Below are positions 1-42,551 of a stretch of 64,000 bases of DNA, piece after piece (the first letter of the stretch is position 1; every line of letters starts with the position of its first letter). The notes beneath the pieces were generated by a model. The model had not been told where the DNA came from. It saw only the letters and a list, made by a program, of their open reading frames with translations, and did not search any database. Made by a program: the position numbers and the translations under genes. Origin of the DNA: Faecousia sp. (GTDB taxonomy: Bacteria > Bacillota > Clostridia > Oscillospirales > Oscillospiraceae); assembly GCA_045656945.1 (NCBI GenBank), contig JAZOSD010000079.1:2797-66796 (forward strand), read 5' to 3'.

Positions 1-195
1 AGTAAGTTGATCGGTTATCCCTGTTATGGGAAGACCATATTTCCGCTGAAATGCACTAACAGCACTCATAGTACTTGGACCATAAATGCCATCAGGTATT
101 ACAGTAGGCAAGCTTATGTCATCTTCTGCTATGATCCGCAGCATCGTTTGCAAACTTCTAACAGGTTGTTCAACAAAAGATTCAGGGGGTCTCAT
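1..195 (-). CDS. Peptidoglycan-binding domain protein (runs off window start)
   Basis: Not in the ORF track; my translation from ATG 195 is MRPPESFVEQPVRSLQTMLRIIAEDDISLPTVIPDGIYGPSTMSAVSAFQRKYGLPITGITDQLT (PG_binding_1-type DGIYG...FQ...GL..TG). AGGAGG RBS upstream; ATGA overlap with the stop of 192..1475. Confidence 0.8.
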   Translation of the reverse strand, partial: MRPPESFVEQPVRSLQTMLRIIAEDDISLPTVIPDGIYGPSTMSAVSAFQRKYGLPITGITDQLT

Positions 196-1475
196 CTTAC
201 TACCTCCTTACGCACAATGTCCTGTGAACCGATGCTTAGATCTCTGCCCGGAAACTGGGTCATAGTGACTGTGCGAGCATAATTTGTGCGCGCAGCGTTT
301 TGTGGGGTATTATTTTGGTTGCTATGGGAACGATTGAAGTTTCCCACTGCGCGAATGTTAGATACAGTTGTATTGCTGTTTGGAAAGTTAGTAAGTGAAC
401 GCAGGGTGGTATTTTCTATTCCTGAATATTGATTATAGATTGCATCCCAGGTGCTGTTATCTACAGATCCTGTTTCAGGCAATGCGAATCTGCGCTGAGC
501 TGCTAATACTGCTGCTCTTGTTGCCTGGCCAAATATACCATCGATCGCGACAGGGGGAATATTTGGGATGTATTCAGATAAGATAGACAACATATATTGC
601 AGAAATTGCACATATTCTCCGCTGTCTCCAACCTGCAGGGAATTTGGAGCAGACCAGTTGATCGCATAATATTGCTGGCCTTGGCTTCGCAACTCAGACA
701 GGCTGTTGACGCCTCCATATATTCGTACGATTTCATACCAGGTTGCAGGACCAACAACACCGTCAGCAGTCAAACCGAAAATCTGTTGAAATGCACGTAC
801 AGCAGCTTCTGTCCGACTTCCAAATATTCCATCATTTGCTGGGATTTTAGGAATTGCAGGATAGTTTTGCGATATCCGATTTAATGCAACCTGTAAAACT
901 ACTACATTAGGACCACTGCTACCAACGCGCAAGGGTGTGCCTGGGTAGGAGGAAGTGATTCCGCGAATAGGTGCATCCGCAACAATTTCCACATCTCCGT
1001 AATAGCTTCGCAGTATTTGATCAGAATTATAACCTTGCAGAGCTAAATTTTGACTACCCCATTGACTTAACCCTTCGCAGGTTACAGTTGTGCCGTTGCA
1101 AAATTTTGCTGCAAGAGGTTCTACAAATCCAGGCCTGCGCAAATAGTCATTAAACAGTTCATCTACAAGAGCAGAAACGTTTTCAAAATAACTTCTTCCA
1201 TTTACAAACGCCTGATCATATGCAGTGTTATTTGTAATGTCAAAATCATAACCTCGACTTCTGTAAAATTCTGTGTAAATTCGATTGAGTGCAAACGAAA
1301 CGATCGCCAATATATTGGCACGTAATGCACTTTCATCCCAGGTTGGATAGATCTCACTGGATGCGACATTTTTTACATAGTCCTGAAAGGATACTGTAAC
1401 ATTTGATGCATTAGAGGAAGGTGCACCTAAATGCACGGTAATATTCTGTGGTACATACGGAACAACTGGTGGCAT
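192..1475 (-). CDS. sleC: SleC-like spore cortex-lytic enzyme (catalytic domain plus two PG-binding domains, no N-terminal pro-region)
   Basis: VPQNITVHLG..YVKNVASSEIYPTW..ANILAIVSFALNR..TE.YR..G matches the SleC/SpoIID-like catalytic region; two DGIFG..T..AV..FQ..FGL..G repeats; GGAGG RBS at 1486-1482. Confidence 0.8.
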   Translation of the reverse strand: MPPVVPYVPQNITVHLGAPSSNASNVTVSFQDYVKNVASSEIYPTWDESALRANILAIVSFALNRIYTEFYRSRGYDFDITNNTAYDQAFVNGRSYFENVSALVDELFNDYLRRPGFVEPLAAKFCNGTTVTCEGLSQWGSQNLALQGYNSDQILRSYYGDVEIVADAPIRGITSSYPGTPLRVGSSGPNVVVLQVALNRISQNYPAIPKIPANDGIFGSRTEAAVRAFQQIFGLTADGVVGPATWYEIVRIYGGVNSLSELRSQGQQYYAINWSAPNSLQVGDSGEYVQFLQYMLSILSEYIPNIPPVAIDGIFGQATRAAVLAAQRRFALPETGSVDNSTWDAIYNQYSGIENTTLRSLTNFPNSNTTVSNIRAVGNFNRSHSNQNNTPQNAARTNYARTVTMTQFPGRDLSIGSQDIVRKEVVR

Positions 1476-1486
1476 ATTGGGCCTCC

Positions 1487-1870
1487 CTATAAGTTTTGCG
1501 CAGGTGTTTGAAAGATTTCAGCTTTGTTCCAGGAATCCGGAAACTCAGAAAGTGGTATGAACTCGAGATTTTGAAGGGTGATTGTATCGGCAAATATTTG
1601 AAGATTTTCAATTTCAATCGCTTCAAAATTTTCTGCTCTTGCATAAAGATTGACTACACTAAAAGGAATGACACCGGTATTAGGCGTAAGACTTGCGGAT
1701 AAATCGGGAACACTGATTTGGATTGGTTCATCAAGTAAACCACTGCGATTAGTAAGTCGCATTGCAATAGCTGAGCCACTGGCATCTGTAACGGTAATAG
1801 CTGTATCCTTTATAGGTATTTGTGCATTGCTGGTAAATGCATGTACTTGTATATATCCGGTTGCAGACAG
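1487..1870 (-). CDS. Stand-alone SleC pro-domain-like protein; start probably CTG 1870 (ORF track: TTG 1888)
   Basis: GYIQVHAF..QIPIKDTAITV..TNRSG..VPDLSASLTP..IPFS..A.AENFE.IEIENLQI resembles the SleC N-terminal pre/pro region; GGAGG lies 7 nt before the in-frame CTG. Confidence 0.65.
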   Translation of the reverse strand: MSATGYIQVHAFTSNAQIPIKDTAITVTDASGSAIAMRLTNRSGLLDEPIQISVPDLSASLTPNTGVIPFSVVNLYARAENFEAIEIENLQIFADTITLQNLEFIPLSEFPDSWNKAEIFQTPAQNL

Positions 1871-1900
1871 AGCAATCCCTCCTTCCAAGGCTTCGGGAGT

Positions 1901-1927
1901 ATCCTATGCCGGAAAAACAAAAAATGT
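1901..1927 (-). promoter_or_regulatory. Candidate sigmaK (mother-cell) promoter for the sleC cluster
   Basis: AC-N17-CATAGGAT on the minus strand about 30 nt upstream of the RBS. Confidence 0.5.
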
Positions 1928-1934
1928 GCAGGAG

Positions 1935-2363
1935 TTATAAAAACTCCTGCAGGTTACGAATACCTTCTTTTTCATAATCCAACAGTTTTTGACACAAATT
2001 ACTCACTCGCTCATCAGAAGAAGAGATCGCGTGCAGATTTTTAACACCTTTAATAATCCCCCGTGTATTTCCATTGATCATCATTGCGGCAGCTTTAGAG
2101 TTGGCGTTTCCGAATGATAAATGTGCACGGACCATAGCGTTTGTCATAGGAATAATGCTATAGGAGAGGGAATCCATTTCCCAACCTCTGCTACTAGCAA
2201 TTGCTTTGGCTTCCTGTTCAATATTGTCATATTGACGAAGCTGATCTTTTAATACAGCTTGAAAGCTTGCTTTCAAAGGCGTTTTTAAGATAGAGCGAAT
2301 ACCAATTTGGCCCATTTGTGCGGTTTTTAATGCTGATCCAAGCAGATCTTTACTGTCTTTCAT
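1935..2363 (-). CDS. Conserved hypothetical helical protein (ferritin-like four-helix bundle suspected)
   Basis: 142-aa ORF with good RBS; MGxxGI...L..QL..Y..I helical pattern typical of small clostridial bundle proteins. Confidence 0.6.
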   Translation of the reverse strand: MKDSKDLLGSALKTAQMGQIGIRSILKTPLKASFQAVLKDQLRQYDNIEQEAKAIASSRGWEMDSLSYSIIPMTNAMVRAHLSFGNANSKAAAMMINGNTRGIIKGVKNLHAISSSDERVSNLCQKLLDYEKEGIRNLQEFL

Positions 2364-41573: not shown

Positions 41574-42551
41574 ATGCAAAAGATGATAAAAGGAATCGTA
41601 TTTGCAACGATAATGGGCGTTGTTGTTCCGGCAATTTTTATGCATGCTATGCAGTCTGCAGATGAAGATAATCCTGTGATCCAGGAACAAACTACAACCA
41701 TAAAGGAAACGGAACGAACAGTAGCATCTGATCATTTTTTAATACCAATACTTTTGCAAGACGGCAAAGTGGAAATGATGGCGCTGGAAGATTACATCGT
41801 AGGTGTCGTTCTTGCAGAGATGCCAGCTGATTTTGAAATAGAAGCATTAAAAGCACAGGCAGTTGTGGCAAGAACATATGCGCTTAAACGTAATTTGATT
41901 AGTCAAAAACATATGGAACAGGCGGTATGTACAAATCCATCTTGCTGTCAGGCTTATTGTACACAAGAGGAGTATATAGCATCCGGTGGAACAAATACCG
42001 CGCTGGAAAAGGTTGAAGATGCAGTAATACAAACAAAAAATGAGGTTCTTACATATAATTCAGAACTGATTGATGCGACATATTTTTCCTGTTCTGGTGG
42101 AAAAACCGAAGATGCAAAAGCTGTATGGGGTGCGGATGTGCCTTATTTACAATCAGTCGATAGTCCGGGGGAGGAATATGCAAATCATCACATAGATACT
42201 GTCTATTTCACATTGGATGAATTTGCGGACTGCTTACAAATTAAAACAGAATTACTTACAGGCAATTGGATAGGAGAAATTTCATATACAAAAGGCGGAG
42301 GTGTTGCCAAAGTTTCCATTTGCAATCAACTATACAGTGGCGTTGAACTTCGCAAATTGCTTGGTCTTCGTTCAACCGCTTTCATAATATCTGCAGTTGG
42401 GAATAAAGTTACCGTAACAACAAAGGGGTTTGGACATAGAGTTGGTATGAGTCAATACGGTGCAGATGCAATGGCTGTATCAGGAAAAAATTATAAAGAA
42501 ATTTTAAGTCATTATTATAAAGGAGCGGTTGTTGACGAAATTGCAATTTGA
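41574..42551 (+). CDS. spoIID: Stage II sporulation protein D
   Basis: LEDYIVGVVLAEMPADF..EALKAQAVVARTY, C.NP.CCQAY, FSCSGG.TE, LRST.F, GFGH.VGMSQYGA. Confidence 0.94.
   Translation: MQKMIKGIVFATIMGVVVPAIFMHAMQSADEDNPVIQEQTTTIKETERTVASDHFLIPILLQDGKVEMMALEDYIVGVVLAEMPADFEIEALKAQAVVARTYALKRNLISQKHMEQAVCTNPSCCQAYCTQEEYIASGGTNTALEKVEDAVIQTKNEVLTYNSELIDATYFSCSGGKTEDAKAVWGADVPYLQSVDSPGEEYANHHIDTVYFTLDEFADCLQIKTELLTGNWIGEISYTKGGGVAKVSICNQLYSGVELRKLLGLRSTAFIISAVGNKVTVTTKGFGHRVGMSQYGADAMAVSGKNYKEILSHYYKGAVVDEIAI

Follow-up and report, generated by a model that had tools for sequence, protein, structure and literature searches.

A SleC-like cortex-lytic enzyme whose predicted pre domain is encoded by a separate gene in Faecousia and other Clostridia

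The cortex-lytic enzyme SleC of C. difficile (CD0551; PDB 9h68) and C. perfringens is made as one pre-pro-mature chain comprising a pre β-sandwich, a SpoIID-like lytic-transglycosylase domain and a PG_binding_1 domain. In C. difficile, sleC belongs to the sigmaK regulon (PMC6878958). YabG cleaves pre-pro-SleC after R119 during sporulation (PMC6464247), the stage at which the canonical pre domain is taken off (PMC6464247, PMC3567191), and CspB takes off the propeptide at germination (PMC3567191, PMC10681294). SleC homologues from many clostridia are recorded in the sporulation gene census of Galperin, with an N-terminal domain without known function. Here, we describe a locus on the minus strand of a 64,000-nucleotide stretch of Faecousia sp. 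DNA (assembly GCA_045656945.1, contig JAZOSD010000079.1; hereafter, the window), in which SleC appears to be encoded in pieces. Gene 1 is predicted to code for the pre domain, gene 2 for the mature enzyme, and gene 3 for a further peptidoglycan-binding protein. The source genome is a metagenome-assembled genome of Faecousia (Oscillospiraceae) that is 99.5% complete.

The products of genes 1 and 2 are collinear with canonical SleC in their pre β-sandwich, lytic-transglycosylase and PG_binding_1 parts. As in the canonical case, cortex lysis in the organism probably depends mainly or solely on this enzyme, with probable late mother-cell expression. Unlike canonical SleC, these parts are distributed over two polypeptides instead of one chain, the propeptide lacks its Pro-rich second half, which in canonical SleC contains the Csp site, and the genome contains neither Csp nor YabG. 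Further differences are a second PG_binding_1 domain in the enzyme, an extra peptidoglycan-binding gene, the presence of a GerA-type receptor, and the position of the split enzymes in a clade of their own. Collectively, the parts are the same as those of SleC, but the gene structure is different and the control is necessarily different.

Homology of the two gene products to SleC

The gene 1 protein belongs to no family in Pfam or NCBIfam, and CarboxypepD_reg is weakly matched by 4 of 52 gene 1 homologues. A single-sequence search of the PDB with gene 1 alone retrieved the N-terminal part of 9h68 weakly, with an E value of 0.073. A profile of the 52 diverse standalone homologues (A1) matched the same structure with an E value of 2e-16; its positions 2–121 fall on chain residues 58–178, i.e., residues 1–121 of native SleC once the tag is subtracted. 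The weaker matches of A1 are transthyretin-like domains, and a Foldseek search with the structural model also gives CnaB and carboxypeptidase-D transthyretin-like domains. By this profile, the gene 1 protein is a homologue of the SleC pre domain. It has a transthyretin/CnaB-like β-sandwich fold, followed by a conserved C-terminal tail, E-x-F-x-T-P-x-Q-N-L-COOH. This extreme C-terminal tail is the best-conserved part outside the fold core, with Q125 and L127 conserved at a level of at least 90% across the 52 homologues. A scan of 1.84 billion representative proteins yielded 531 gene 1 homologues; among the top 150, the full-length ones are nearly all free-standing proteins of approximately 125–131 aa.

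For gene 2, a phmmer search aligned residues 6–261 with residues 217–475 of the C. difficile SleC zymogen form (PDB 9h68_A) with an E value of 9e-77. The Pfam matches are PF08486 and two copies of PF01471 (PF01471 E value 6.5e-32), and the match to TIGR02869 is confined to the peptidoglycan-binding part. Close relatives of gene 2 in public databases are annotated as ‘peptidoglycan-binding protein’. An assignment of gene 2 as SpoIID was rejected: its TIGR02870 score of 41.8 bits is below the cut-off (234.75), and a true SpoIID, scoring 310 bits, is encoded at 41598–42539 of the window.

The point at which the two genes part was located by aligning 11 split pairs and 18 fused SleC sequences of other Clostridia; one of the fused sequences is N-terminally identical to 9h68. 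The C-terminus of gene 1, E-x-F-x-(T)P-x-Q-N-L, aligns with E-I-I-x-V-x-P-N-T-L of the fused forms (‘PQNL’ corresponding to ‘PNTL’). The fused ‘PNTL’ motif lies just past the YabG site and represents the first third of the propeptide; in C. difficile SleC, the first half of the propeptide reads ‘ELIFDIGEHTL’ and the second ‘YGTYPPKIPESNLKPLPPP’. By this alignment, gene 1 comprises the pre domain and the first ~12 propeptide residues, a stub of the pro region. A preliminary description of the window, made from the sequence alone, had likened the upstream frame to the SleC pro-region. Homology to the N-terminal region of SleC is borne out by the A1 profile, but the homologous part is the pre domain with those ~12 propeptide residues rather than the pro-region as such.

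A segment of ~22 residues that immediately precedes the mature N-terminus in the fused forms, x-G-N-Y-P-P-K-I-P-E-x-x-E-K-P-L-P-P-P-S-S-G (‘GNYPPKIPEDPEKPLPPPSSG’), is missing from every split pair aligned. Directly after it, the start of gene 2, M-P-x-V-x-P-Y-x-P-x-x-I-T-V-H-L-G, aligns with fused V-V-L-x-x-P-V-V-P-E-x-I-x-V-H, in which V-V represents residues 149–150 of a 439-aa fused Clostridiaceae-like form. We take this V-V (Val149/Val150 in C. perfringens) to be the site at which the germination-specific Csp protease cleaves. Gene 2 thus reads as the mature enzyme, its Met1 being aligned with the mature N-terminus of fused SleC, and the break does fall near the start of the mature enzyme, as had been proposed. 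Judged from the alignment, neither gene retains the Pro-rich second half of the propeptide, which is taken to hold this site.

At the junction, the gene 1 TAG (1489–1487) is followed by GGAGG (1486–1482) and the gene 2 ATG (1475–1473), with a gap of 11 nt (1486–1476) and a frame offset of 2. The preliminary description had given gene 1 as 1487..1870, with the TAG, the GGAGG, the 11-nt gap and the ATG in another frame; all of these are exact on the sequence. The start at 1870 is backed by 79 of 80 Faecousia loci, where the aligned codon is CTG in 51, TTG in 19 and ATG, GTG or ATH in 9. In 65 of the 80, GGAGG lies 7–8 nt 5' of the codon equivalent to this start. The TTG at 1888 chosen by the ORF finder aligns with a start codon in 33 of 80 loci and with a stop codon in 11. 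Because of this codon comparison across 80 related species, the true start of gene 1 is placed at 1870 (CTG) and not at 1888.

Distribution of the split form and of the germination proteases

The small gene is open in 23 of 24 genomes of the same genus, mostly as frames of ~131–190 aa (one of 310 aa) with 43–85% identity. In each of the 12 genus loci inspected, a stop codon is followed by a Shine-Dalgarno sequence and a start codon; the gaps are 9–15 nt, and the relative frames are 0, 1 or 2. Thirty loci from the class that belong to other families share the layout, the GGAGG placement and the ...PQNL end. With the enzyme alone as the query, two scans of species-representative genomes gave 160 loci, and the pre gene lies directly upstream of the enzyme gene in 159 of them. 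Recurrence on this scale, within the genus and outside it, goes far beyond what chance would give. The relative frames of these 159 loci are distributed as 59/50/50, which excludes read-through or frameshifting as the route to the product. In the 80 Faecousia loci, the gaps are 8–17 nt except for one of 35 nt, and gene 1 ends with TAG in 39, TAA in 39 and TGA in 2. Among 18 further loci with shorter profile matches, 16 are adjacent split pairs; the rest are a fused-type frame (L081) and two loci of genome G342. A split pair is also present in the cultured strain Bacilliculturomica massiliensis Marseille-P3303 (L232; NZ_LR027603.1:1230788-1233978), with a TGA stop and an 11-codon in-frame spacer.

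Both genes are under purifying selection; pairwise dN/dS is ~0.12 for gene 1 and ~0.05 for gene 2, rough values since dS is near saturation. In a maximum-likelihood tree of 74 catalytic domains, all 55 split enzymes fall in one clade (support 100/91). The fused enzymes fall outside this clade, and a fused enzyme from a Csp-less genome (L090) is its sister. A single ancient fission or fusion is enough to account for the distribution of the split form. The layout is old and widespread, and it is found in Oscillospiraceae and at least a dozen other families. The preliminary description had read the locus as a two-gene design and not as a nonsense mutation, and the recurrence of the pair, the use of all three stop codons, the varied frames and gaps, and the purifying selection are as that reading predicts. 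Profile similarity of the upstream frame to SleC was found, and close relatives carry split rather than fused genes.

The distribution of Csp follows that of the fused enzyme. A profile made from six Csp domains of three fused-SleC genomes was run on 80 SleC-bearing genomes, which represent a follow-up of a survey of 399 Clostridia genomes. Full-length Csp (>390 bits) is present in 19 of 21 fused-SleC genomes (G229, with a 265-aa frame of the fused type, was counted as fused) and in none of 59 split-only genomes, where the best scores are ≤63 bits; these counts are not phylogenetically independent, the split side covering ~15 families and the fused side 7. The source genome, with a best score of ≤49 bits, has no Csp. 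Its sole Peptidase_S8 match is a 2466-aa frame (G000:C24:16323-23723) that carries a signal peptide and has its S8 domain in one piece, unlike Csp proteins, which give a split S8 match, and this protein is probably a cell-surface protease unrelated to germination. In genus g73, four species are split-only and without Csp, and the fifth (G297) has a fused sleC adjoining csp genes. G297 also appears to carry a split pair, in the form of a 375-aa frame that a single TAA interrupts. The two fused-SleC genomes without Csp are G054, which has fused SleC (L052) together with YabG, and G342, which has an 835-aa fused SleC-like protein and a lone pre-domain gene without an adjoining enzyme gene.

In the literature, YabG is counted as belonging to the signature of endosporulation. 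The source genome lacks the family (PF05582, Peptidase_U57), as do 34 of the 35 split-type genomes tested; it was found in the C. difficile-like and Clostridiaceae-like controls. Split-SleC genomes without YabG still have SpoIVA and GerA. Since the split layout occurs in genomes without Csp, the enzyme would be switched on differently from textbook SleC. The earlier suggestion of a germination trigger that may not need cleavage of SleC is in keeping with the lack of Csp in the source genome.

Possible action of the free pre-domain protein

Several features point to a role of the locus in spore germination. The source genome encodes SpoIVA (598 bits, over the cut-off) and one GerA-family receptor subunit (443 bits), and SpoIVA is present in 39 of 40 genomes with the split pair. 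No match to Hydrolase_2 (PF07486), the family of SleB/CwlJ-type enzymes, was found anywhere in the source genome, and the split SleC is therefore the only recognisable cortex-lytic enzyme there. Upstream of gene 1, an element AC-N16-17-CATANNNTA occurs in 66 of 155 related loci, compared with 1% of random windows from the same loci. As a match to the sigmaK consensus, it predicts late mother-cell expression. Family f48 (L177-L196) has a different conserved motif, ..CATA..N17..AATATA.., in place of the sigmaK-like element, possibly a promoter of the sigmaE type. A gerA receptor gene lies within 1–2 kb of the split sleC pair in two genomes from the same order (G037:C14:299948-304604; G175:C22:17469-20713), a proximity that hints at a functional link.

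Pro-regions of subtilisin and α-lytic protease, and the lipase-specific foldase Lif, have been demonstrated to act in trans on their enzymes. The arrangement found here is similar in that a folding or inhibitory module would come as a polypeptide of its own, in many cases from a neighbouring gene; it differs in fold and enzyme class, and trans action is inferred here. The prepeptide of C. perfringens SleC is reportedly needed to obtain an activatable enzyme, a finding said to go back to Okamura et al. in 2000. We consider trans action of the free pre-domain protein on the enzyme probable, initially in folding and subsequently in non-covalent latency, with cortex lysis proceeding without SleC cleavage. 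The co-occurrence of the two genes (159/160), the conserved tail and the reported need for the C. perfringens prepeptide argue for such trans action.

According to this proposal, the three genes form a conserved operon that is probably expressed at a late stage in the mother cell and encodes SleC in pieces. Because the Csp-cut segment, Csp and YabG are all absent, both proteolytic steps, the cleavage by YabG (pre) and that by Csp (pro), would be replaced by gene structure. The gene 1 protein would first assist the folding of the enzyme in trans, as is reported for the C. perfringens prepeptide. Later, in the dormant spore, it would act on the enzyme non-covalently through its highly conserved C-terminal tail and keep it latent or stable. 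Lysis would be set free at a step after the GerA-type receptor, e.g., through release of calcium dipicolinate (Ca-DPA), hydration or loss of the partner. Gene 3 would contribute a small peptidoglycan-binding protein, which could be a cortex anchor for the enzyme. The conserved weak or non-canonical start of gene 1 may set a low ratio of pre-domain protein to enzyme. The more specific proposal that the pre-domain protein, via its PxQNL tail, keeps the propeptide-less SleC latent until a physical signal downstream of GerA is tentative, and we hold it to be somewhat less likely true than false.

By analogy, the proposal resembles the SleB-YpeB and CwlJ-GerQ(YwdL) systems of Bacillus, in which a cortex-lytic enzyme has a separately encoded partner for its stability or placement. 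Storage without proteolytic activation and action downstream of GerA-type receptors would also be shared with SleB/CwlJ. The analogy is functional only, however, as the catalytic folds are unrelated (Hydrolase_2, PF07486, is absent here) and the partners are not homologous.

Several observations weigh against the proposal of folding and latency in trans. In canonical SleC, the inhibitory element is the propeptide, and the pre domain is gone before dormancy; with most of the propeptide missing here, the free enzyme might be under no inhibition at all. In 70 of 80 Faecousia species, gene 1 begins with CTG or TTG, both weak starts, which is more in line with a helper made in sub-stoichiometric amounts than with a 1:1 inhibitor. 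The occurrence of fused SleC without Csp in G054 and G342 means that fusion does not strictly require Csp. Structure prediction also gave no support for a zymogen-like complex. A read-through fusion of a relative with both genes in the same frame (stop read as Gly, linker of 4–11 residues, 42 rows) was modelled by AlphaFold2 with a pLDDT of 76 and a pTM of 0.45, i.e., with confident domains but without a confident arrangement. The top Foldseek match of this model is 9h68, over ~411 columns with an E value of 5e-38 and a TM score of 0.57–0.59, which speaks for the identity of both parts, but the global RMSD is ~20 Å and the arrangement does not superpose.

Some of these observations would fit a foldase role alone, which we regard as possible though on balance unlikely. 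The pre-domain protein would then serve transiently as an intermolecular chaperone and would not stay in the spore. The dormant spore would contain a mature-form enzyme, restrained by the state of its substrate, its localisation or Ca-DPA, as in the case of Bacillus SleB/CwlJ. The removal of the canonical pre domain during sporulation (PMC6464247, PMC3567191), the absence of most of the inhibitory propeptide, the weak gene 1 starts and the presence of a GerA receptor are all in line with this explanation. The conserved tail is not, since it represents a retained piece of the propeptide for which a pure foldase has no obvious need, and it speaks for a latency partner.

A role of the pair outside germination, with the enzyme remodelling peptidoglycan during sporulation or vegetative growth and the small protein as its targeting subunit, is very improbable. 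It would suit the membership of the catalytic domain in the SpoIID superfamily, but a true SpoIID over the cut-off is encoded elsewhere, and the enzyme is far closer to SleC (E value 9e-77) than to SpoIID (42 bits versus 235). Against it also stand the lack of any further recognisable cortex-lytic enzyme in the genome, the sigmaK-type character of the promoter-like element and the occurrence of the pair in genomes with SpoIVA (39/40). Finally, a gene broken by a nonsense or frameshift mutation, or a fused protein made by programmed read-through or frameshifting, has a negligible chance of being correct, as nothing more than the bare look of a stop inside a SleC-like frame speaks for it, against a split in 159 of 160 loci from many families, a Shine-Dalgarno sequence and start codon of its own for each gene 2, even use of the three frames with varied gaps and three stops, purifying selection, and the loss of a 22-aa segment relative to the fused forms.

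Locus features and significance for commensal spores

The coordinates of the features are collected in Table 1. The strong terminator at the 5' side marks the boundary of the split-sleC transcription unit. It belongs to an upstream gene on the minus strand (1935–2372) for a helical-looking protein of 145 aa, which has no family match in Pfam or NCBIfam, and the 3' end and terminator of this gene are kept beside the operon in many Faecousia loci. On the other side, gene 3 is translationally coupled to gene 2: its ATG overlaps the TGA of gene 2 (ATGA), and the same overlapping start is found in 80 of 80 Faecousia loci. The gene 3 product consists of PG_binding_1-like repeats.

Table 1. Features of the split-sleC locus, in window coordinates.
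Feature	Position	Strand	Remarks
Intrinsic terminator of the upstream 145-aa gene	1951..1927	minus	10-bp stem followed by a T run; terminator scan
sigmaK-type promoter-like element	1927..1900	minus	AC (1927-1926), 17 nt, CATAggaTA (1908-1900); consensus match
Shine-Dalgarno sequence AAGGAGGG of gene 1	1884..1877	minus	6 nt ahead of the CTG start
Gene 1, predicted 127-aa SleC pre-domain protein	1870..1487	minus	CTG start, TAG stop
Shine-Dalgarno sequence GGAGG of gene 2	1486..1482	minus	immediately 3' of the gene 1 TAG
Gene 2, predicted 427-aa propeptide-less SleC-like lytic transglycosylase	1475..192	minus	9h68 and Pfam matches
Gene 2, SpoIID-like catalytic domain	about nt 951-1460	minus	PF08486
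Gene 2, PG_binding_1 no. 1	735-917	minus	PF01471
Gene 2, PG_binding_1 no. 2	429-647	minus	PF01471; gene 2 also has an N/T-rich tail
Gene 3 (start), 180-aa PG_binding_1 protein	195..1	minus	extends past the window edge to contig C79:2452

To date, clostridial germination models have been built on C. difficile and C. perfringens, with YabG, Csp and the cleavage of SleC as the committed step and a drug target. Full-text literature searches turned up no publication that describes a split SleC or its anticorrelation with Csp. Among the SleC-bearing genomes of the 80-genome follow-up, approximately three-quarters have a split, propeptide-less SleC without Csp and usually without YabG, which implies a different on-switch for the spores of many abundant commensals. 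This bears on the response of commensal spores to bile acids, on their culturing, on live biotherapeutics and on how selectively anti-germination compounds act. The split also represents a natural dissection of the SleC pre domain and offers a direct test of its role as foldase, inhibitor or anchor. If the proposed mechanism is true, many gut and rumen Clostridia would use a protease-independent germination switch, and the Csp/YabG cascade would be a minority solution.

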